Positions 2,271-61,811 are shown, counted from the first letter of the stretch. The stretch is 64,000 nt of DNA from Kiritimatiellia bacterium (GCA_046484345.1 JAWOJA010000007.1:11206-75205); one strand, 5' to 3'. The notes: a model not told the origin generated them from the sequence alone. Numbers and translations: made by a program.

Positions 2271-2395
2271 GCATTTTAAGCTGGAACGAAACGGCCCTTT
2301 ACTCTATAAATATTCTCATAGCGCGTGTAGCGCCCGGTAGCTTCCGCTCAATGAGCGGTTCCGGAATAAAGCCAAAGTGCCGAGAAGGAGATCGC

Positions 2396-3733
2396 ATGTA
2401 CAAGGATAAATCGTTGTTTCGCCAGGTCGGTTTTTCGCTGATTTGCGCCGGTTTGCTGACGGCGGGTTGCAACCGCCAGAGTGAGACGACCAAGACCGAA
2501 GAGGCGGCCAAGCCCGCCGCCGCTCCCGAAGTCAAGGCCAGTGCCGCTGTCGATCCCGCCAAGGTCATGATCCAAATCGATGACAAGAAGATCACCGAAG
2601 GAGAGCTGACCAAGCAGGCCGCCGAACAGTACGAGCAGGTGGCCGCCATGGTCCCCCCGGAGCAGTCCGAGACCTACCGCAACCAAATGCGCGTCCAGGC
2701 CGCCCAGTCGTTCATCATCACCACGCTGCTGGAAAACGAAGCCACCAAGCGCAACATCACGGTCAATGAGGCCGATATCGAAAAGGCCATCGCCGATATC
2801 ACCAAGCGTCTCCCCGCGGATATGAACTTGGAGAAGGTGCTCGAAAAGGAGGGCATGACCCCCGAGACCTTCCGTGACCGTTTGAAAAAGGATCTTCGCA
2901 TCAAGAAGTTGTTCGATGTGGAGATGGATAAGGCCGGTCCGATTGCGGACAAGGAAGTCGCCGATTTCTACGCCAAACAGAAATCCGCCTTCGAAGTGCC
3001 CGAGCAGGTGACCGCCCGCCACATCCTCATCAAGGTGGATGAAAAGGACGATGAGGCCGCGAAGGCTGCCAAGAAGGGCAAGATCGAGGATCTGAAGAAG
3101 AAGATCGAAGCCGGCGCCGATTTCGCGACCCTCGCCAAGGAAAATTCCGACTGCCCTTCCGCCAAAGAGGGCGGCTCGCTGCCCAAGTTCGGCCGCGGCC
3201 AGATGGTGCCCGCGTTCGAGGAAGCCGCTTTCACGCAGGCCACGAATGTGGTGGGCCCGATTGTCGAGACCCAGTTTGGCTATCACCTCGTCCAGGTGAT
3301 CGAGAAGGACGCCGGGTCCACGCGCTCCCTCGAGGACGTCAAGGAGCAGATTCTCGACTACCTCAAAATGATGAAGAGCCGCACGATCATCCCGCCGTTC
3401 ATCGACAGCCTGCGCGCCAATGCCAAGGTGACCATCGACCCTGAGCTGGATGAAGAAATCCAGGCCCAGAAGCTGGCTGACGAAGCCCGTCAAGCTGCCT
3501 CCATGCAGGGCGACGAGGGCGACGAGGGTGAAGAGGGCGAAGAGCAGGAAGAAGAAGTTCAGGCTCCGGCCGTTGAACCGGCCCCGGAAGCCCCGGAAGC
3601 CCCGGAAGCCCCGGCGGCCCCGGAAGCCCCGGCGGCCCCGGAAGCCCCGGCGGCTCCGGAAGCCCCGGCGGCTCCGGAAGCCCCGGCGGCTCCGGCTCCG
3701 GCCGTCGAGGCCGTCCCGCCAGCGGCGAAATAA
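2396..3733 (+). CDS. Parvulin-type peptidyl-prolyl isomerase lipoprotein (PrsA/SurA-like) with acidic Pro/Ala-rich repeat tail
   Basis: RBS AAGGAG lies 7 nt before the ATG at 2396. Lipobox LLTAGC. Rotamase domain (ARHILIKV...FGYHLVQV). C-terminal (PEAPAA)n repeat. Confidence 0.75.
   Translation: MYKDKSLFRQVGFSLICAGLLTAGCNRQSETTKTEEAAKPAAAPEVKASAAVDPAKVMIQIDDKKITEGELTKQAAEQYEQVAAMVPPEQSETYRNQMRVQAAQSFIITTLLENEATKRNITVNEADIEKAIADITKRLPADMNLEKVLEKEGMTPETFRDRLKKDLRIKKLFDVEMDKAGPIADKEVADFYAKQKSAFEVPEQVTARHILIKVDEKDDEAAKAAKKGKIEDLKKKIEAGADFATLAKENSDCPSAKEGGSLPKFGRGQMVPAFEEAAFTQATNVVGPIVETQFGYHLVQVIEKDAGSTRSLEDVKEQILDYLKMMKSRTIIPPFIDSLRANAKVTIDPELDEEIQAQKLADEARQAASMQGDEGDEGEEGEEQEEEVQAPAVEPAPEAPEAPEAPAAPEAPAAPEAPAAPEAPAAPEAPAAPAPAVEAVPPAAK
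3581..3700 (+). repeat. In-frame tandem repeat (9/18-nt units gccccggaa / gccccggcggccccggaa) encoding PEAPEAPAAPEAPAA within the PPIase tail
   Basis: About 7 near-identical tandem copies, read directly from the sequence. Confidence 0.8.
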
Positions 3734-14811: not shown

Positions 14812-16470
14812 ATGAGGGCAGGGGCGTGCGTGTGGCTGGCGGCGGCGTGTGCGGTTCTGGGCGGTTCGGGGGGGGCGCAAGCCGCCGGGCCCGGCTTCCC
14901 GATCCGCGAGGTGCAAGTCGGGGGCGATGCGGCGGTGCTGGCCCGGGAGGGCCTGCTGGAGCCCTGGAAGGCGGAATTGACGGGGCGGACCCTTTCTTCG
15001 GAAGAGGTCCAGGAAAAGGCCCGCCAGCTTCGCGACCAACTGCGCGAACGGGGTTACTTCCTGGCGTCGGTGCGCACGCCGCCGGCCGATTATTCCGCCG
15101 GCGTGGTGCCGATCGAGGTGGATGCCGGGCGGTTCGGCACGCTGTCCATTTCGGGGCCGGGCGGCGCCCCCTTTGAGGGCCGCTGGTTCGACGAGGAGCA
15201 GCTGCGGTACCGTCTTTCCGGCATGGGCGAGGGGCTGTTCTTCCGTGAATCCGATTTTTACCGCCACGTGCTGGGCGTCAACACGCATCCCGATCTCGTT
15301 CTGGATCCCGTACTCAAGGTGCGCAAGGAAACGGAGGACGGGCTTGTCCGGCGCCATGTGGACATCCGGGCCGAGGTGACGGAAGCCCTGCCCCTGCACG
15401 CCATCCTGACGGTGGACAACACCGGCACCGAAGCGACCGGCGAATGGCGCGCCACGGCCCTGGTGCAGTACCTGAACCTGACCCGGCACGACGATATTCT
15501 CTCCGTCTGGCTGGGGCCGGTCTCGGAGGAATCGGGCTCCAGTCGCTCGGCCGCGGCCAGCTATCTGCGGCCGAACCGGATCGGCCGGGGGGGCGGCACG
15601 CTGCTCTATGGCGGTTATTCCGATGTGGAAGCGCAGGAGGTTGCGGACGTCTTCGCCTTCCGCGGCGAAGGTTGGTTTGTCGGTTTGCGCCAAGATTGGC
15701 GCCTGGCCGCCAACGAGGTGCGGGAAGTGGTGTTCAGCCTGGGCGCCTCCTGGCGCGGCCAGGAGGAGACGCTCTCCGTCGAACAGGATGATTTAGACCA
15801 TGATGGCGACACCCGCACGGTTTCCGTGATGCCGGTCAGCGTCGGACTGCAGGTCAATCCCATGCGGACGGACGCCTGGAACGGGCGGACTTTTCTGGAT
15901 GCCGAAATCGTCTGCGGTCCCGGGGGGCTCATGGGAAGCGAGGATGACATCGAGGAATTCAAGCCGGGCGCGGAGGCCACCTATGTCGTCGGGCGCTTGC
16001 GCCTGGCGCGGCTACAGCCGCTCGGAAATGCCCCGCGCGAACGGACCGGGGATCTCTGGATGCTCTTCGGCCGGGCGGAGCTGCAGGCCGCCAACGGGGC
16101 GCTTCTGGGCGCCGAGCAACTGGCGTTGGGCGGCATGGAAACCGTGCGCGGCTTTGCGGAGCGCGCGGTCATGGGCGATCAGGGCGGGGATGCGACGCTG
16201 GAGCTGCGCACGCCGCTGGCGGGCTCGTTCCTGCACGCCCAGGGCGTCCTGTTTGCCGATGCGGGCCATGCCATTTCCGAGGGCGAGGACGACCGGGACG
16301 CCATCACGCTGGCCGGAGCGGGTGCGGGAATTCGCCTGGCCATGGGGCCCTACTCGCAACTCCGCCTGGATTACGGCGTGCCGGTGAGCGGCAAGGAAGA
16401 GGTGGAGGAGGAAACCGGAACGACCGTCGACTCCGGCCGCCTGCATCTGCGCGCGACAATTCAATTTTAA
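14812..16470 (+). CDS. ShlB/FhaC/HecB-family outer-membrane secretion/activation protein (TpsB, two-partner secretion transporter)
   Basis: RBS GAAGGAGG before the ATG at 14812. Signal peptide, POTRA region, conserved GG(M)ETVRGF motif, and a C-terminal Phe. Confidence 0.8.
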   Translation: MRAGACVWLAAACAVLGGSGGAQAAGPGFPIREVQVGGDAAVLAREGLLEPWKAELTGRTLSSEEVQEKARQLRDQLRERGYFLASVRTPPADYSAGVVPIEVDAGRFGTLSISGPGGAPFEGRWFDEEQLRYRLSGMGEGLFFRESDFYRHVLGVNTHPDLVLDPVLKVRKETEDGLVRRHVDIRAEVTEALPLHAILTVDNTGTEATGEWRATALVQYLNLTRHDDILSVWLGPVSEESGSSRSAAASYLRPNRIGRGGGTLLYGGYSDVEAQEVADVFAFRGEGWFVGLRQDWRLAANEVREVVFSLGASWRGQEETLSVEQDDLDHDGDTRTVSVMPVSVGLQVNPMRTDAWNGRTFLDAEIVCGPGGLMGSEDDIEEFKPGAEATYVVGRLRLARLQPLGNAPRERTGDLWMLFGRAELQAANGALLGAEQLALGGMETVRGFAERAVMGDQGGDATLELRTPLAGSFLHAQGVLFADAGHAISEGEDDRDAITLAGAGAGIRLAMGPYSQLRLDYGVPVSGKEEVEEETGTTVDSGRLHLRATIQF

Positions 16471-22206: not shown

Positions 22207-22431
22207 CTGTGGTCGGTTGGACAGGGTGCGGCGTTTCGATCAGACGGACGCTGGCGATGCGATTTTGCGATGCTGGCGGTTGACGGCGAGGGGAGCTGGG
22301 CTCGTGCCCGCGAGCCTCCAGCCGGAAACCGGCAGCGCGCAAAAGCGCGCGGCAGGGAACGCCCGAAACGCCGCACCCAGCCCAACCGGGCATATAACCG
22401 CAACCATGTCGAATCCGCCGACGGCTTTCGC

Positions 22432-33819: not shown

Positions 33820-33908
33820 GATGGGGTTCTCCGGAAGGTGATTTCATACCCTTACAGTATGCGTCCGCCATGGGGGCTGTCAATTCGGGATATCCCTATT
33901 GGGGGTGT

Positions 33909-34007
33909 CTTAATCGTAATCTTAATCGTAATCCCTTCCTGCTCGGCCGTACCTCAAACAGCCAGGGGCGCAGCAAGAGTTGGATTGAGATTAAGATTAC
34001 GATTAGG
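33909..34007. promoter_or_regulatory. Large AT-rich inverted repeat between the ClpX-like gene and uvrA; candidate repressor operator
   Basis: Arm 1 is cttaatcgtaatcttaatcgtaatccc at 33909-33935. Arm 2 is agattaagattacgattagg at 33988-34007. The arms share a 17-nt perfect reverse-complement match, and arm 2 abuts the uvrA -35. Confidence 0.5.
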
Positions 34008-34025
34008 AGTAAGAGTAAGCCTGAC

Positions 34026-34078: not shown

Positions 34079-39514
<5,436 letters not shown>

Positions 39515-39607
39515 TCCAAGCCTTGCGCGAAGCATGGAGGGCGGCGCGCTGTCGCCGCCGCCGCATGGGATTGTCTCGGTTGATGGTTTCCGATACGCCC
39601 GCGAAGG

Positions 39608-39653
39608 TGGTGGGCAGTACAGGAATCGAACCTGTAACATCCAGCGTGTAAAG
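39608..39653 (-). pseudogene. 46-nt fragment of tRNA-Val (anticodon loop through CCA), inverted relative to the intact tRNA-Val at 44497; candidate att-site remnant
   Basis: The reverse complement of 39608-39653 equals ctttacacgctggatgttacaggttcgattcctgtactgcccacca, identical to the 3' 46 nt of the tRNA at 44497-44572. Similarity ends abruptly at the anticodon-stem/loop junction. Confidence 0.8.
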
Positions 39654-40051
39654 GTATTCAAGCTGTTTTCGTAAGTGCCACAATAAGAAGTTGTTGTGGC
39701 TATAAGCCCTTGAAAACACAATTTTTAAGGCGATCCAGATCGATCCGCCACGATAACAGGCGATCAAGTGAGAAACCAAGTGTCATGCGGTGTGTCATGC
39801 ACTTTGTTAAAAAGCATTTTATAGGGACAGGAAATGCGCTCTTATGATTGAGATTCTCCTGATATATCCACTGGACCTTAACAGGCGAAATCCTACCCTT
39901 ATCGCTTTACTCTATAATATTACTTTAAAGGATGTTGACTGAATGCCCTGTTGAGTCCAACATTGAAGAAGCTCGTTTTTGAGAAATTTCTCTTTGTCAA
40001 ACAAGACCCGCAAAGTCCAGAGGGGAACGAGACACCGAAAGGAGGCTACAC

Positions 40052-40273
40052 ATGGGCGACTGGTCAGACTACTTCGAGCAATTCCCCGAGGAGAATCCCG
40101 GCAACTACGATAAGAACGGCCAATTCGACCCGCACGGGGTTCTCCGGAAAGAGCGGGCAACCCAGCAACTTGCCCAAAGGCGTTTGACCGAAGTGCAACT
40201 GGCGAACGCAACGGCAACCCAACCGGTGACGCAAGTTGACACAGGAATATCCCAACACCCGCGTCCACGGTAG
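40052..40273 (+). CDS. Small (73 aa) hydrophilic hypothetical protein
   Basis: Strong RBS AAAGGAGG 7 nt before the ATG. Its stop codon lies inside REP-like hairpin copy 1. Confidence 0.45.
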   Translation: MGDWSDYFEQFPEENPGNYDKNGQFDPHGVLRKERATQQLAQRRLTEVQLANATATQPVTQVDTGISQHPRPR

Positions 40274-40301
40274 CCTCGCAAGCTCGGCACCGTGACGCGG
40301 G
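40258..40301 (+). repeat. REP-like imperfect palindromic repeat, copy 1 (core cacggtagcctcgcaagctcggcaccgtg)
   Basis: A 13-14 bp stem with one bulge (cccgcgtccacggt / accgtgacgcggg). Contains a GTAG tetranucleotide. The 29-nt core is repeated at 41699-41727. Confidence 0.6.
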
Positions 40302-40320
40302 ACGTTCGAATATAATAAGA

Positions 40321-41064
40321 ATGATAAAAACCATGACAGACATCCGTAAGTTTTGTGGATGGCTAATGCTGGTCTTGGTGATCGGCGAATTTGTATTCTT
40401 TGCCAACAGTTGGCTTCGATATTGCCCGCCAACCGAAGCACTCCAATTTGCTTTCAGCGGCGCGTGGTTTAGGGACAAATTCCCGTATGGCGGTGCAGGT
40501 TTCGCCTTGGATAAGCCGACGATAGGAAAATTATTCTTATGGACCTCAGTTTTGACCTGCCTCGCCTGCACAATAATATTGCTGCTACATACTGTCGTAG
40601 AACGCAATCACCGCGTGGGGTGGCGGTGCGCGAAAGCAAGTGCGGCTTTTCTTATTGCTTTTGTCTTGGTTGAGTTCCTCGTCCCAACCTTTTTTCTTGT
40701 TCAGTATGTTTTTTCCATGGGTGTGACGATTCGTCGGTTCCTGGGGCTTTGTTTGTGTTGTGGTTTTTGGTTCTCTCTTCCGTCAATCATATTCTGGATC
40801 AGGAAGACGGGGCCATCGCTGATAGATTGGAAACGTAATCCTCTTGTTTTAGCGCTCGCCTGCTCTATTGTTATTCCTACTTACTATTTGATCCTCATAC
40901 TGCAACCATACGAATGTCGCCATTGGGGAACAGTAAACACAATGTTCTTACTTGCATGGCTAATGCTGGTTGCTCCAATACTCTGCGTCATGTGGCTAAA
41001 CTCACGGGTCAAGACTAATGTCACCGAACCAGCGGTTGCGACTAACCGCAAGAGCCGCAATTGA
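40321..41064 (+). CDS. Hypothetical polytopic membrane protein (about 6 TM), low-GC
   Basis: Six predicted hydrophobic helices. No recognisable catalytic motif. ATGA overlap with the next ORF. Confidence 0.45.
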   Translation: MIKTMTDIRKFCGWLMLVLVIGEFVFFANSWLRYCPPTEALQFAFSGAWFRDKFPYGGAGFALDKPTIGKLFLWTSVLTCLACTIILLLHTVVERNHRVGWRCAKASAAFLIAFVLVEFLVPTFFLVQYVFSMGVTIRRFLGLCLCCGFWFSLPSIIFWIRKTGPSLIDWKRNPLVLALACSIVIPTYYLILILQPYECRHWGTVNTMFLLAWLMLVAPILCVMWLNSRVKTNVTEPAVATNRKSRN

Positions 41065-41681
41065 ACCTAGTCATTCAGGCAGTGGCCGCACAGGCCAGTC
41101 GTTCGGCAGGCAAACATCACATGACAAAACATCGCATCGTATTCATTGGCGCATGGATAGTGCTCATATTAGCTCTTTTCGCGTTCCCGGGGTTCGAGGC
41201 ACGAGGTATCGCGAGTGGTCTTGTCATTGGCTGGTGGCCTTTCCTGTTCCTCGGACCCCTGGTCGCAAATTCACAGAACGGGGAGGGAATCGCATATCTC
41301 ATTGCCTTCATAACGAGCGGGACAATAGTTGGATTTTGTGCATGGGTTATGGACAGAGCTGAATTGACGAAAAAGGCCTGGCTGGTGTTACTGTTGTCGA
41401 TCATAGGAGGAGCCGCCGTTATCTACGTCTTGACCGATTACAGTTTTGATGATTGGAAAAGATCTCCCGCTGTGTCGGCTGCAATGGAGTCACCAGAATT
41501 GAGCTACGAACCCACAGGGGGGGAGTTTAACGAGTCAATTGTGATACCGCAATTGCTGGCCGGTGGCATGTGGGGTCTATATGTGGCTACAACCTTGAGT
41601 TTCTTTTATTCAATAATCCTCTTGAGGATACTTCGCTTGAAGCAGATGCAGGCGGCGGCTGACTCACAACATGAAACATGA
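41061..41681 (+). CDS. Hypothetical polytopic membrane protein (about 5 TM), low-GC; alternative start at 41121
   Basis: Hydrophobic helices. Translationally coupled to the upstream membrane protein. REP-like copy 2 lies 12 nt after its stop. Confidence 0.45.
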   Translation: MNLVIQAVAAQASRSAGKHHMTKHRIVFIGAWIVLILALFAFPGFEARGIASGLVIGWWPFLFLGPLVANSQNGEGIAYLIAFITSGTIVGFCAWVMDRAELTKKAWLVLLLSIIGGAAVIYVLTDYSFDDWKRSPAVSAAMESPELSYEPTGGEFNESIVIPQLLAGGMWGLYVATTLSFFYSIILLRILRLKQMQAAADSQHET

Positions 41682-41692
41682 AGCCGAACACT

Positions 41693-41730
41693 GCGGCGCA
41701 CGGTAGCCTCGCAAGCTCGGCGCCGTGCCT
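41693..41730 (+). repeat. REP-like palindromic repeat, copy 2 (core cacggtagcctcgcaagctcggcgccgtg)
   Basis: 28/29 identity with the copy-1 core; the flanks are unrelated. Confidence 0.6.
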
Positions 41731-41943
41731 CGAAGAGGCATTGGGGTCACGTCTATAAATTCTAATTTCATAAATTAGGGACAAATAGCCTTCTCATGCG
41801 GAGCATCCGCTTTCCGAAGGCTGAGTAGCTCCCGTTGTCGTTGAACGGGGCAACCGAGTACCAGAGATCCGACTCCTTCGTCGTCCGGATCACGGTGCCC
41901 GGCACGGACTGCACTTCCTTCATCAACGTGTCCGATTCTCGCT

Positions 41944-42945
41944 TCACGTCGATTGCACGGTTCCCGGACGCTCGTACGGCGCATTGTAACTGACGATGGC
42001 TTGTGCCCATTCATTCAGTTCCATGCATTGTTCGCGGGTGACCGGCTTGCGCTGCCTTTGGTAAGGGAATGGGGCGATCATCAGCAGTCGTCCTGCGGCG
42101 CAGGCATCGAAATAGCGTCCAATGGGTTTGTATTGGGGCGCGAACCCATTGGCGAGCAGCACTATGAGTGGTCGGCCGGCTTCCAGCGCCGCACGGGCAA
42201 TGGCTTTCTCTCCAGGGCTGATGCAGGGAGAAACCAGAACGGCGCCGTGTTCCGCTTCGCAGAGCAGTTCCCGCCGCCTGGCGTCCAGTTCTTCCGCAGA
42301 GACGCGCCGCGAGACTTGGATCTGGCATTTCAAAGGGTGCTGCAGGAGAAAACGGTTGCCGATGGCGGCAGAGGTTCTGCCGGCGGCGATTTCCAGATGG
42401 GAGACAACGGTAAAGAGGCTCGGGTTCGCCCTTTTCACGGCCAGACGCCGGGGATTGTCTGCAATATAGGCCGCCATGGCCTTCAACTGGCCACGGCGCA
42501 GGAGGATGCTATCCTGGAAACCGGGCTGCCATAACCCGGCGGCAGGGGCTGCCGCCCGAACTGGACTGGAGGCTGCCGCCGGGTCCGGGCGCAGGAGCAA
42601 CCCCCTGCTCCTGCATTCCTTCTCGCTCACGCTCTTGAACGCCTTCACCATGTGGCCCATCGGCCGCACCAGGCGTTCTTTGACCCAGAGAATGCCATGA
42701 AAGTGGTCGGGCATCACCACATGCTCGCAGGCCTCCACTCCGGGATACACGGACGAACTCCGCCGCCAGACGTCGCGGACGATCTCCCCCATGGTCGAGA
42801 GTGCCATGGCGGCCTGGCCGCCGGGGCCGGCATGCAACGCGCCGAGGCAATTCCGCCGCTGTTCGGTGACTACCGTAATCATGTAGAAGCTGGGAGCGTA
42901 GTAGTCGTGCTCCCAGCAGCGCTGAAGCATTCCCGTGTTGCTCAT
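41944..42945 (-). CDS. REP-associated tyrosine transposase (RAYT)-like HuH/Y1 protein with a ~140-aa C-terminal DprA/SLOG-like extension
   Basis: N-terminal ~190 aa carries the RAYT hallmarks YY...ITVVT, HuH motif VVMPDHFHGILWV, and catalytic-Tyr motif YIADNPRRLAV (compare YIxxNPVRAGLV). The C-terminal region resembles the DprA Rossmann domain (VLVSP.ISPGEKAIARAALEAGRPLIVLL...LLMIAPFP). The second domain is tentative. Confidence 0.6.
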   Translation of the reverse strand: MSNTGMLQRCWEHDYYAPSFYMITVVTEQRRNCLGALHAGPGGQAAMALSTMGEIVRDVWRRSSSVYPGVEACEHVVMPDHFHGILWVKERLVRPMGHMVKAFKSVSEKECRSRGLLLRPDPAAASSPVRAAAPAAGLWQPGFQDSILLRRGQLKAMAAYIADNPRRLAVKRANPSLFTVVSHLEIAAGRTSAAIGNRFLLQHPLKCQIQVSRRVSAEELDARRRELLCEAEHGAVLVSPCISPGEKAIARAALEAGRPLIVLLANGFAPQYKPIGRYFDACAAGRLLMIAPFPYQRQRKPVTREQCMELNEWAQAIVSYNAPYERPGTVQST

Positions 42946-43066
42946 GCTCTGGTTCGCTATTCGCTATCCATCATTGAGATGGCCCTCCTACGCGCGGCGT
43001 CGAAACCGACTTGCGATTCGAAGGGCCCACCACCTTCGCGAAAACGCTGACCCGACGACCGGCGAA

Positions 43067-44362
43067 TCAGCCGCGTTTTTCGTTCCGCGCGTGAAGAACG
43101 GCCCGGTAGGAGCCGAGGTCGAAGCCCTCCTTGGCGGCGCCCGATTTCACGGCGGCCTCGGCCACGGCCGCCGGCACGGTTTCGAAGAGCCGGCGGTCGA
43201 AGGGCTTCGGGATGATGTAATGGCGCCCGAAGGTCATTTCGGGCTCCCCGTAAATATCCTTCACGTGGGCCGGAACGGGTTCGCGCGCCAGTTCGGCCAG
43301 TGCCCGGGACGCCGCTTGTTTCATTTCCAGGTTCACGGTGCGGGCGCGCGCGTCGAGCGCGCCGCGGAAGAGGTACGGAAAGCCCAGCACGTTGTTGATC
43401 TGGTTGACGTAGTCCGACCGGCCCGTGGCCATCACGTAGGGCTCCCTGCCCATAACCTCGGCTACCAGTTCGGGCCGGATCTCGGGGTCGGGATTGGCCA
43501 TCGCGAAGACGGCGGGGTAGGAGGCCATGGACTTGACTTCGGCCGGCTTGAGGCAGTCGGCCGCCGACACGCCGACGAACACGTGGGCGCCCTTCAGCGC
43601 GTCGGCCAGCGTGGCGGCCGTGGTTTCGACCGCGTGTTCCTTTTTCTTGCCCGACAGGCCGGCCCGCGCGGTCCGCACCACGCCCTTGGTGTCGCACAGC
43701 GTCACGCGGGTGCAGCCGGCCACCTTCAGCATTTCACAGATCCGGATGCCGGCCGCGCCCGCGCCGTTGATCACGATTTTCAGCTCGCTCATGTCGCGGG
43801 CGGAAAGCCGGGCGTAGTTCATGACGCCCGCGAGGGTGATGACCGCCGTGCCCCACTGGTCGTCGTGGAACACGGGGATATCGAGCAGGGCGTCGAGCTT
43901 GTCCTCGATTTCGAAGCAGGCGGGGGCGGCGATGTCTTCCAGGTTGATGCCGCCGTACATGCCGGCCAGGGCGGCGGTGGCGTCGATGACGCGGGCGGGG
44001 TCGGTTTTGCCCGTGTTGGCGCCGCCCAGGCGGCAGCGGTCGAGGGGAACGGGCCAGCCGTCCACGTCGCCGAAGGCCTTGAAGAGGACGGCCTTGCCCT
44101 CCATGACGGGGATGCTGGCCTGGGCGCCGAGGTCGCCTAGGCCGAGGATGGCGGTGCCGTCGGACACCACGCCCACCAGGTTGGCGCGGCTGGTGTATTG
44201 GTAGACGGAGTCGGGCCGGGCGGCGATTTCTTTGACGGCCTGGGCCACGCCGGGGGTGTAGGCGAGGCAGAGGTCCTGCTGCGAGGCAAAGGGTTTCATG
44301 ATGCGCATCCCGACCTTGCCGCCGAGATGATAGTGAAGAACGTCTTCTTTGGTGATGGCCAT
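43067..44362 (-). CDS. NAD(P)-dependent malic enzyme (short MaeB-N-type)
   Basis: Malic enzyme motifs are collinear (YTPGVA..., GAGAAG NAD-binding). ATG at 44362 with RBS AAGGAA. Confidence 0.85.
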   Translation of the reverse strand: MAITKEDVLHYHLGGKVGMRIMKPFASQQDLCLAYTPGVAQAVKEIAARPDSVYQYTSRANLVGVVSDGTAILGLGDLGAQASIPVMEGKAVLFKAFGDVDGWPVPLDRCRLGGANTGKTDPARVIDATAALAGMYGGINLEDIAAPACFEIEDKLDALLDIPVFHDDQWGTAVITLAGVMNYARLSARDMSELKIVINGAGAAGIRICEMLKVAGCTRVTLCDTKGVVRTARAGLSGKKKEHAVETTAATLADALKGAHVFVGVSAADCLKPAEVKSMASYPAVFAMANPDPEIRPELVAEVMGREPYVMATGRSDYVNQINNVLGFPYLFRGALDARARTVNLEMKQAASRALAELAREPVPAHVKDIYGEPEMTFGRHYIIPKPFDRRLFETVPAAVAEAAVKSGAAKEGFDLGSYRAVLHARNEKRG

Positions 44363-44448
44363 GTCCAATTCCTTCTTGATGAGACGGAAAAATATACCGG
44401 ATTGTGGCCGTCCGTGCAATTGTGTTTAATCCCGAAAGGCTGTCCGGC

Positions 44449-44477
44449 TTGCAATTGAAGGCGCGCTTCGCTAGTGT
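44449..44477 (+). promoter_or_regulatory. tRNA-Val promoter TTGCAA-N17-TAGTGT
   Basis: Hexamers lie ~20 nt upstream of the mature tRNA 5' end. Same architecture as the promoters at 13018 and 22432. Confidence 0.45.
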
Positions 44478-44496
44478 ACACGGATTGTTGCACGCC

Positions 44497-44572
44497 GGGC
44501 AGTTAGCTCAATTGGCAGAGCGCCAGCTTTACACGCTGGATGTTACAGGTTCGATTCCTGTACTGCCCACCA
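44497..44572 (+). tRNA. tRNA-Val (anticodon TAC)
   Basis: 76-nt cloverleaf: acceptor GGGCAGT/ACTGCCC, D-arm GCTC...GAGC, anticodon loop TTTACAC, T-arm ACAGGTTCGATTCCTGT, 3' CCA encoded. Confidence 0.9.
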
Positions 44573-44886
44573 TCATCTATCCTGTCCGCTATCCGCTATC
44601 CGCCGGGCAATCGATGTGAAACGGGAGCCGGATGCTAATTTTGGGAGTAGGGGCAGCCACAAAGCCATTTATCGAGTCACTTGGCTTATTTATTATTGTT
44701 AGGACTGATTTCAAGATTCGGTATCGTAACATCCGCAATGCCGGATTCCAGCATAAACGCATACATTCATACGCCTCATTTCCTTCGGCCGAAGGAGTCG
44801 TAAACCGATCAAATCCATAAACCCGTTTTACGATGACCATTTTCTCGGTATCAGTTTGTCGTTTGTCGGGACTTGACCCCTTTCGG

Positions 44887-44921
44887 AAAAAAGCCCGCAA
44901 AGAGGGTGCTTTGCGGGCTTT
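44887..44921 (-). terminator. Rho-independent terminator downstream of the XRE gene
   Basis: On the minus strand reads AAAGCCCGCAAAG-caccct-CTTTGCGGGCTTTTTT: a GC-rich stem followed by a U-run. Confidence 0.6.
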
Positions 44922-44939
44922 CAGGAATGGGAAAACGAA

Positions 44940-45194
44940 TCAACCGCGTTTCTTGCCGGCCTTGCCGGTGCCGATGAGCTTCAGCCCCTTCGTGGCATCG
45001 ATGCCGAGGGCTTCGCAGAAGCGGACATACTCCAGCACGTCCAGGCGGCGTTCTCCGGTTTCATTCTTGCTCACCCAGGAGGGCGGCATTTTGAGGGTCT
45101 TGGCCAAGGTCCGAAGCGTGATCTTCTGGGAGGTCCGCGCATTCCGCAACCAGGCGAGCAACTCGGCAAACTGCTTTATTTGTTTCGTTTTCAT
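44940..45194 (-). CDS. XRE-family helix-turn-helix transcriptional regulator (Cro/CI-like)
   Basis: An 84-aa HTH_XRE domain (LRTLAKTLKMPPSWVSKNETGERRL). Lies in an AT-rich segment between two tRNA genes. Confidence 0.7.
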   Translation of the reverse strand: MKTKQIKQFAELLAWLRNARTSQKITLRTLAKTLKMPPSWVSKNETGERRLDVLEYVRFCEALGIDATKGLKLIGTGKAGKKRG

Positions 45195-60776: not shown

Positions 60777-61811
60777 ATGAAAAAGAAAAACGTGTCCGCA
60801 TATGCCGCCGCCGGCGTCAATATCGACGAGAAAATGGCCGGCATCAACGCCATCAAGAAAATGGTCAAGACCACCGCCACGCCGGGCGTATTGACCGGCA
60901 TCGGCTCCTTCGGGGGCATGTTCCGCTCGCCGGGCAAGGGCCAGATCCTCGTCGCCAGCACGGACGGCGTGGGCACGAAGCTCAAGATCGCCACCCTCGC
61001 GAACCGTCACGACACGGTGGGCCAGGACATCGTCAACCATTGCGTGAACGACATCCTGGTGCAGGGCGCCAGGCCGCTCTTTTTCATGGATTACATCGGC
61101 ACCTCCAAGGTTGACCGCCACGTGATGGCCGCCCTCGTCAAGGGCATGTGCGCCGCCTGCCGGCAGAACGACTGCGCCCTGCTTGGCGGCGAAACCGCCG
61201 AGATGCCCGGCGTCTATCCCCCCGGGGAATACGATCTCGTTGGCACCATCGTCGGCGTGGTGGACAAGCGCGCCGTGATCACGGGCGGCACGATCCGCCC
61301 CGGCGACGTCATCCTGGGGTTGCCCTCCTCGGGGCTCCACACGAACGGCTATTCCCTGGCGCGCAAGATTGTGTTCGAGACCGCCGGCCTGAAGGTCGGG
61401 GACCGCTTCCCCGGCACGAAGGAAAGTGTGGCCGACGTGCTGCTGGCCGTCCATCGCAGCTACCTGAAGCCGGTGTCCACGCTCCTGAAAAAGGTGTCGA
61501 TCCGCGGCCTCGCCCATATCACGGGCGGCGGGTTTCCCGACAATGTTCCGCGCATTCTGCCCGAAGGCGTGACAGCGGTGTTCGACCGGTCCGCCTGGAA
61601 GATTCCGCCGCTCTTCTCCTTCCTGCAGGAAAAGGGAGACGTGAACCGCGAGGAGATGTACCGCGTCTTCAACATGGGCATTGGCATGGTGGTTATCGTG
61701 CGCGAGGCGGACGCGGCGCAGGCCCTGGCCGTTCTCAAGGCCGCCCGGGCCCGGCCGATCCGGATCGGCCGCATCGCGAAGGGGCGCGTTCCCGTTCTGC
61801 TGGAAAATTGA
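60777..61811 (+). CDS. purM: Phosphoribosylformylglycinamidine cyclo-ligase (AIR synthetase)
   Basis: PurM motifs (YAAAGVNID, GIGSFGGMF, DYIGTSK, HITGGG). Confidence 0.9.
   Translation: MKKKNVSAYAAAGVNIDEKMAGINAIKKMVKTTATPGVLTGIGSFGGMFRSPGKGQILVASTDGVGTKLKIATLANRHDTVGQDIVNHCVNDILVQGARPLFFMDYIGTSKVDRHVMAALVKGMCAACRQNDCALLGGETAEMPGVYPPGEYDLVGTIVGVVDKRAVITGGTIRPGDVILGLPSSGLHTNGYSLARKIVFETAGLKVGDRFPGTKESVADVLLAVHRSYLKPVSTLLKKVSIRGLAHITGGGFPDNVPRILPEGVTAVFDRSAWKIPPLFSFLQEKGDVNREEMYRVFNMGIGMVVIVREADAAQALAVLKAARARPIRIGRIAKGRVPVLLEN

Follow-up and report, generated by a model that had tools for sequence, protein, structure and literature searches.

An inverted half-tRNA beside a low-GC islet in a Kiritimatiellia bacterium, a likely remnant of a degraded and rearranged tDNA island

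What does an exact copy of half a tRNA gene signify when it stands in inverted orientation 4.9 kb from the intact gene? The question is raised by a 64,000-nt stretch of DNA from a Kiritimatiellia bacterium (GCA_046484345.1, JAWOJA010000007.1:11206–75205; hereafter the window), in which the 3′ part of a tRNA-Val gene recurs on the opposite strand downstream of uvrA. Between the two copies lie a low-GC islet, a gene resembling those of the REP-associated tyrosine transposases (RAYT; REP, repetitive extragenic palindromic) and a malic enzyme gene. An initial annotation, made from the sequence alone, had taken the pair to bound an accessory segment and had pointed to the attachment (att) sites of tyrosine integrases. 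The locus is most likely a new example of an already known type of scar, the remnant of a degraded tRNA-gene (tDNA) island, in which the inverted, close-range configuration is unusual.

Three tRNA genes were found in the window by ARAGORN, including the intact tRNA-Val(TAC) at 44497–44572 on the + strand, which Rfam also recognizes (74.3 bits). A repeat search returned two inverted arms of 51 nt (39603–39653 and 44527–44577), 96% complementary and 4873 nt apart, and direct reading of the sequence confirmed the exact inverted copy that had been described initially, 46 nt of the 3′ part of tRNA-Val(TAC) at 39608–39653 on the − strand, referred to below as the fragment and, in att terms, as an attR-type core (O). 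The identity (46/46) spans the last base of the 5′ anticodon stem, the loop, the 3′ stem, the variable loop, the T arm, the acceptor and the CCA. The CCA end of the fragment is oriented toward uvrA and its anticodon-loop edge abuts the islet; it begins 93 nt past the uvrA stop (39514), so that its placement immediately after uvrA was roughly right. A chance origin of the 46-mer is ruled out, since the 25-mer GGTTCGATTCCTGTACTGCCCACCA from the shared part is expected 0 times in 64 kb and has two sites. Neither ARAGORN nor Rfam calls a tRNA at 39608–39653, and the fragment is thus not a second full tRNA-Val that was misread. The 30-nt 5′ half of tRNA-Val occurs once in the window, and because no second 5′ half is present, the fragment is regarded as a terminal piece rather than a decayed whole gene. 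The 5′ flank of the fragment has no similarity to the tRNA, and no exact match to the 46-mer or to the junction between the fragment and its outer flank was found in IMG/VR or the JGI metagenomes.

The inner edge of the fragment is also a step in base composition. Windowed GC is 0.40–0.52 across 39550–41800 versus 0.65–0.70 in the flanks, and it changes from about 0.64 to 0.40–0.47 at the fragment, the DNA being AT-rich from the first base past the identity. The GC content at third codon positions (GC3) of the two larger open reading frames (ORFs) of the islet is 0.51–0.54, compared with 0.80–0.88 in the core genes of the window, while the RAYT-like gene has a value of 0.73, the malic enzyme gene 0.88 and the small helix-turn-helix (HTH) gene after tRNA-Val 0.79. 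Because the RAYT-like gene and the malic enzyme gene are near native in GC3, the foreign-looking DNA is limited to ~2.1 kb, from 39654 to about 41790, and is not the whole 4.9 kb. The suggestion that the 4.9-kb segment is an accessory unit therefore stands for 39654 to ~41790, where the windowed GC and codon-usage comparison proposed with it comes out atypical, and fails for the remainder of the segment. By GC3 per gene, the islet is the sole strongly atypical stretch of the window, which makes its designation as the accessory hotspot fair; the rest is core DNA, encoding DnaE, LpxK, a heptosyltransferase, lipopolysaccharide (LPS) glycosyltransferases and an O-antigen ligase.

Next to the fragment, GC and short repeats delimit an AT-rich non-coding arm of ~400 nt (39654–40051). 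It carries direct repeats phased at 12 nt, with CAAGTG at 39765 and 39777 and GTGTCATGC at 39780 and 39792, the latter two being the only copies in the window, and these repeats sit 110–150 nt from the core. Further repeats in the arm are TAACAGGCGA and AGGCGATC[C/A]AG, each present twice. Both copies of GTGTCATGC had been recognized initially and are real, while the accompanying repeat reported as ccaagtg is actually CAAGTG, twice, 12 nt apart. These elements are possible arm-type or operator sites, an arm-type role being a guess where no integrase is found. The arm is followed by a 73-aa ORF (40052–40273, +) with an AAGGAGG ribosome-binding site and no family match, by orf247, which encodes a polytopic membrane protein of a small, patchy family (40321–41064, +; NCBI start 40333; MFO7534184.1), and by orf206, which encodes another membrane protein (41121–41681, +; 186 aa from the ATG at 41121, 206 aa as an ORF). 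Two copies of a 49-nt repeat follow the first and the last islet ORF, respectively. Copy 1 (40251–40299, +) contains the 23-nt core CACGGTAGCCTCGCAAGCTCGGC and folds into a strong hairpin (−28.8 kcal/mol, z=−4.1); copy 2 (41684–41732, +) is 80% identical overall with the core exact, and ends ~60 nt short of the right edge of the low-GC DNA. At that edge, directly downstream of the RAYT-like gene, a 51-aa ORF (41768–41923, −) has its last codons in AT-rich DNA and may represent a native gene cut short where the islet ends on its right, at about 41750–41790.

No family or function match for the islet proteins was obtained in Pfam, NCBIfam, PADLOC or PHROGs. The proteins nevertheless look real, having homologues in small families. 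Searches among 5.8 billion sequences gave 27 homologues of the orf247 product with 46–60% identity, in Kiritimatiellae, Hydrogenedentota and unbinned metagenomes, where they occupy unrelated gene contexts in different phyla, and 54 representative relatives of the orf206 product were found among 1.84 billion proteins. In its AlphaFold model (pLDDT 74), the orf247 product forms a bundle of membrane helices, for which no significant match was found in the PDB. In another metagenome (loci L087 and L088), an orf247 homologue lies ~0.9 kb from a tRNA-Gly(TCC)-like 3′ fragment that runs from the anticodon arm to the CCA and adjoins a gene for a 532-aa Phage_integrase protein at the edge of a defence-gene cluster. 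This fragment scores 25.9 bits in Rfam, under the threshold of 29, and there is no full tRNA at the locus. This context indicates that the orf247 family travels as cargo near tDNA att sites. In L087 (7074–7359), and likewise in L088, three tandem 89-nt repeats and a GIY-YIG gene come after the tRNA-Gly fragment that adjoins the integrase gene, and with them the orf247 homologue; the defence cluster includes PycTM, DUF87, N6_N4_Mtase and PLD-SNF2 helicase genes.

The closest relatives in the searched collections are 80–84% identical, and compared with them synteny is broken at every junction in the order uvrA, fragment and islet, RAYT-like gene, malic enzyme gene and tRNA-Val. In the closest relative of uvrA (L092, 80% at the nucleotide level), similarity stops within ~15 nt of the uvrA stop and is followed by DUF2059 and hom, with no tRNA. 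A scan of genome contigs for the malic enzyme gene gave 80 loci, the best of them (L001) 84% identical, with neither synteny nor a tRNA-Val; the malic enzyme gene of L001 is flanked on one side by a homologue of the window gene at 14.8–16.7 kb and on the other by unrelated DNA. The homologues of the RAYT-like gene lie in other operons, and their contexts are all different.

We consider the probability to be somewhat better than even that the locus is a degraded and rearranged tDNA island, the fragment marking the attR-type remnant of an integrative element that targeted the anticodon loop and was later inverted. A tyrosine-integrase element would have recombined in the anticodon loop of tRNA-Val, giving a displaced 3′ fragment and an attR-type junction P-O-B′, and the tRNA-Val gene would have stayed intact by virtue of the tRNA 3′ part brought by the element itself. 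The 2.1-kb islet would then be the surviving cargo end, with the 73-aa protein, the two membrane proteins and the AT-rich arm, and the integrase module together with the other end of the element would have been deleted. The earlier att reading holds up in the break at the anticodon loop, the atypical DNA from the first inner base, the patchy islet genes, one of them with a homologue beside a tRNA-Gly 3′ fragment and an integrase gene, and the synteny break 3′ of uvrA, and falls short in treating the 4.9 kb as one unit. Each junction taken alone is that of a tDNA integration product, namely a full tRNA followed by low-GC DNA (B-O-P′) at one end, and low-GC DNA, a 3′ fragment and an ordinary flank (P-O-B′) at the other. 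The present layout is [B'*]-O*-[P*] ... [B]-O-[P'] (asterisks denoting the reverse complement), with the 3′ ends outward. Because integration alone yields direct repeats, at least one later inversion is needed. It may have followed a standard integration next to uvrA, with a subsequent flip of the block of tRNA-Val, malic enzyme gene and RAYT-like gene, or may have occurred by recombination of tRNA-Val with an inverted att copy in cis. With no substitutions in the 46 nt and a GC content still un-ameliorated, the acquisition and the rearrangement look recent.

Two pairs of short repeats also bear on the rearrangement. The 16-mer GCCCACCACCTTCGCG is present at 39600–39615 (−), where it covers the last 8 nt of the tRNA fragment and 8 nt of its outer flank, and at 43025–43040 (+), in the 121-nt spacer between the RAYT-like and malic enzyme genes and inverted with respect to the fragment junction. 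An inverted repeat of 16 nt was reached in just one of 300 composition-matched random regions, and the copy at 43025–43040 may mark a rearrangement endpoint. Neither a decayed second tRNA half nor a longer shared flank accounts for this region, as the similarity stops at 16 nt, and the 16-mer is not conserved downstream of the malic enzyme gene in L001. The first 10 nt of the right copy and the two preceding bases (GGGCCCACCA) are also identical to the 3′ end of tRNA-Met. The second pair consists of the 15-mer CGCTATCCGCTATCC at 44587–44601 (+), starting 15 nt past tRNA-Val, and CGCTATTCGCTATCC at 42955–42969 (+), 10 nt upstream of the start of the RAYT-like gene, which agree at 14 of 15 positions; both sites carry the tandem heptamer motif CGCTAT[C/T]CGCTATCC. 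This motif may be the cognate site of the HUH-DprA protein described below or an att arm site. No inverted or direct repeats were found between the right edge of the islet and the tRNA-Met side, and third-position skew, tried as an inversion clock, proved uninformative because coding-strand bias dominates it.

Several results weigh against the island reading. No Phage_integrase or other recombinase domain was found in the 49 ORFs scanned with Pfam, which are the main ORFs along the window and for which the earlier statement that no integrase is present holds, and tblastn with the L087 integrase returned no integrase relic. The right edge of the islet lacks a second att repeat, and the islet DNA and proteins have no match in the phage, plasmid and IMG/VR collections or the PADLOC and PHROG libraries. 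Neither an empty site nor the pre-inversion order is shown by the relatives, the nearest of which are 80–84% identical and rearranged at every junction. The pair also fails two filters of the Islander method for tDNA islands, namely same orientation and a 3′ fragment downstream, and the island model leaves the 16-mer at 43025–43040 and the 15-mer pair unexplained.

The inverted orientation would need no extra inversion if the fragment were the remnant of a second tRNA-Val (−) convergent with uvrA, whose 5′ 30 nt were removed as low-GC DNA arrived by illegitimate recombination or deletion, with no integrase involved. The outer flank of the fragment, which is ordinary high-GC DNA adjoining the uvrA terminator hairpin, is in keeping with such a history, and so is the failure to find an integrase among the 49 ORFs or a second att copy in the window. 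However, the break falls exactly at the junction of the anticodon stem and loop, the preferred crossover site of integrases, and the foreign DNA directly adjoins the last identical base. Drift would be expected in a dead half-gene, but all 46 positions agree with the live gene, and no tRNA follows uvrA in the nearest relative. This origin is accordingly considered unlikely. The source is a metagenome-assembled genome contig of 91 kb and the abrupt composition change falls on the edge of a repeat, which raises the question of a contig mis-joined at a k-mer shared with a tRNA-Val gene or fragment elsewhere. The final k-mers of common assemblers are usually longer than 46 nt, which makes a mis-join unlikely. 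Kiritimatiellia-like genes are found on both sides of the islet, the junction of islet and half-tRNA must exist in the reads on any assembly path, and, as part of the 16-mer, the outer flank recurs at another place on the contig; an artefact is thus very improbable. The lowest probability is given to a functional RNA, in which read-through from uvrA would produce 46 nt antisense to the 3′ half of tRNA-Val, acting as an anti-tRNA or a processing signal. On the sense strand of the uvrA transcript, the fragment does come 93 nt after the gene, but a GC-rich hairpin follows the uvrA stop, Rfam gave no match and the fragment is missing from the relative, without any sign of conservation.

The layout is also the expected product of recombination between attB and an inverted attP in cis. 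A low-GC element (islet, O and the flank at 44573–44939) with an attP-like tRNA-Val half, as yet unrecombined, situated between the RAYT-like gene and tRNA-Met, would have recombined with a native tRNA-Val (−) beside uvrA, an integrase or the 46-nt homology flipping 4.87 kb, and the present order would be one of two interconvertible isomers. Flipping the 4.87 kb back would make all low-GC DNA contiguous around the 46-mer, set the malic enzyme and RAYT-like genes on the strand of lpxK and the downstream genes, and leave the RAYT-like gene between inverted 15-mers. In a relative whose RAYT homologue is 82% identical (L081, 10116–10133), moreover, ATTCGCTATCCGGCCGGG is found ~90 nt downstream of that homologue and matches 44585–44601 and beyond (p about 0.016). 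Resting on short matches, these effects are no more than suggestive. On the other side, the matches to the motif are short and of marginal significance (p 0.016–0.05), the tail of the RAYT-like gene shares nothing else with the relative, the HTH gene, which adjoins the putative P′ arm, is native in codon usage, the first insertion of the element is left unexplained and no integrase was found. Such a switch seems to us a little less probable than a second tRNA-Val. It is more doubtful still that the 46-nt pair acts as a recombination switch today or did so until recently, in which tRNA-Val and a cis att copy flip the 4.87-kb block of malic enzyme and RAYT-DprA genes. If it were, the flipped junctions would join the uvrA flank to a full tRNA-Val (−) and the islet to the 46-mer followed by TCATCTATCC, the 16-mer and 15-mer would be scars of repeated flips or sites of the HUH-DprA protein, and the locus would parallel, in a bacterium and on a small scale, the chromosome flipping that integrases drive in Thermococcales.

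The RAYT-like gene (41944–42945, −; 333 aa, MFO7534187.1), native-like in GC3, lies outside the islet. Its product contains an HUH/Y1 core at residues of about 19–175 and a DprA/ShosA-like Rossmann domain at about 180–320. The NCBIfam model REP_Tyr_transpos (NF047646) aligns with residues 19–167 (E=1e-12) at 48.2 bits, below its cut-off of 80, and no Pfam match was obtained even at E≤10. The residues H81 and H83 (HUH; DHFH), Y160, N164 and P165 (YIADNP) are invariant in 30 homologues. In Foldseek, the AlphaFold2 (AF2) model (pLDDT 85) matched 2vjv and 2xma (E=1e-6) and superposed on the E. coli RAYT, 4er8, with a root mean square deviation (rmsd) of 2.4 Å; its N-terminal half resembles the TnpA of IS200/IS605, and its C-terminal half resembles ShosA and DprA. 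The designation as RAYT-like is therefore apt for residues 19–167, by profile and fold, and does not cover a 333-aa protein with an extra domain and a score below the cut-off. The gene is a domesticated HUH/Y1-DprA-like fusion rather than a classical RAYT.

Across Kiritimatiellia, Lentisphaeria and Verrucomicrobia, more than 780 homologues were found with 57–82% full-length identity (homologue material P0001–P0120; loci L081–L086 and L099), many of them translationally coupled to unrelated neighbours. The nearest relative, at 82%, is about as divergent as those of the malic enzyme and the uvrA C-terminus, at 84%. Because this divergence equals that of the malic enzyme and uvrA and because the family is broad, the comparison favours vertical inheritance. 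The view of the gene as accessory cargo is at odds with a family conserved across classes of the Planctomycetes-Verrucomicrobia-Chlamydiae (PVC) group that diverges to the same extent as these two genes. In comparison with RAYT/TnpA-REP proteins (4er8, PMC3479197; PMC6006769), the protein shares the H81-F-H83 and YIxxNP (Y160) motifs, the IS200/IS605-type fold and a conserved, host-gene-like pattern. It differs from them in its length of 333 aa, its C-terminal DprA/ShosA-like domain, its score under the NCBIfam cut-off, the lack of a Pfam match, the lack of a REP family in the window and the frequent translational coupling of its homologues to unrelated genes. No family of repeated palindromes (REP, or REP doublets forming hairpins, REPIN) occurs in the 64 kb, the 15-mer pair at 42955 and 44587 being all that was seen, and the 49-nt repeat was rejected as a REP for this gene, having just two copies, both within the islet. 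A 333-aa DprA-fused subclass was not found in those excerpts of the 2018 TnpA-Y1 classification that were searched (PMC6006769). In L081 (10230–10340), and also in L082, a long, near-perfect palindrome with arms of ~23 bp (GGGAGCGCGGCACCGTCCGCGCG...) lies downstream of the nearest relative's RAYT homologue, at a distance of ~200 nt.

The NAD(P)-malic enzyme gene (43067–44362, −) likewise looks native. Upstream of its start, TTGCAC...TATATT is common to the window and L001 and is read as a promoter; this similarity and the GC3 of 0.88 speak against a place inside an accessory segment. On the other side of the locus, uvrA is a single ORF of 1811 aa (34079–39514, +) with four copies of the ABC-signature region, corresponding to two fused UvrA-like halves. 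Its C-terminal 499 aa are 57–70% identical to many UvrA entries of up to ~870 aa, many of them partial and several named from Proteobacteria, and one partial relative with 84% identity occurs in a JGI metagenome. The stop of uvrA is followed by the GC-rich hairpin, a terminator, and by the ordinary high-GC outer flank of the fragment. Beyond tRNA-Val, a low-GC (0.46–0.52) non-coding flank (44573–44939) with a 13-bp hairpin at 44890–44921 may be a P′ arm or native DNA from downstream of the RAYT-like gene, and it is followed by a gene for an 84-aa Xre-type HTH regulator (HTH_31; 44940–45194, −) with native-like GC3.

Promoter and terminator counts are at background level. Some further repeats were noted elsewhere in the window. 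Just upstream of uvrA (33908–34008) there is a 27-nt inverted repeat (89% complementary, 47-nt spacer) composed of TAATC-type short repeats, which may be a regulatory palindrome, and a 25-nt inverted repeat (92% complementary, 125-nt spacer) fills 22214–22388, in the gap between a kinase gene and a sigma-54 activator gene. Runs of 9-nt tandem repeats of the GGCGACGAG and CCCCGGAAG types (3497–3713) encode the C-terminal end of a SurA/PPIase-like ORF (2351–3733). The self-palindromic CGGCCGATCCGGATCGGCCG forms a near-perfect 24-nt repeat whose copies (15566–15589 and 61750–61773) are 46 kb apart, both in ORFs.

Set against known systems, the locus is closest to the tDNA islands defined by the Islander criteria (Hudson, Lau and Williams, 2015; PMC4383910) with the sublocation classes of Williams (2002). 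Among 3919 Islander islands, 3760 have 3′ fragments and 2083 use anticodon-centred "A" sites, the commonest class (PMC4383910). As in these islands, an intact tDNA (44497–44572) and a cognate fragment (39608–39653) share a replicon, the fragment is a terminal 3′ piece from an "A" crossover site, and foreign accessory genes abut it. In contrast to them, no integrase domain lies between tDNA and fragment, fragment and tRNA occupy opposite strands (− and +, respectively), the 3′ fragment lies 4.9 kb away to the 5′ side of the tRNA gene, and only one boundary survives, the foreign DNA, at 2.1 kb, being at the lower limit of size for such islands. Full and partial tRNA copies on opposite strands following an inversion are known from Thermococcus kodakarensis (PMC9897764), and integrase-driven inversions in Thermococcales have been described under the title "Flipping chromosomes in deep-sea archaea" (PMC5495485). 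The present pair is alike in having a partial and a full copy on opposite strands and in the proposed sequence of integration and then inversion; however, the Thermococcales pairs are archaeal and about 179 kb apart, while here the distance is 4.9 kb, the host is a PVC bacterium and no integrase is left. The inverted repeats (46 nt and 16 nt) also recall Hin/Gin or shufflon invertible segments, but no recombinase domain was found in the 49 ORFs. Cis-mobilisable elements (CIMEs) are integrase-less island remnants that retain directly oriented att sites at both ends and are mobilisable in cis; the islet resembles them as a small piece of att-bounded DNA without a recombination module, and differs in its single, inverted att-type junction.

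Half-tRNA scars in the "wrong" orientation are dropped by island finders such as Islander. Yet, as this locus shows, a scar of that sort can lie precisely at the border of acquired DNA, which matters mainly for annotation. The scar is also a dated marker in an uncultured lineage of Kiritimatiellia. The by-products of the analysis are perhaps worth more than the scar itself, namely a conserved HUH/Y1-DprA-like family of the PVC bacteria and two small families of membrane proteins as island cargo.

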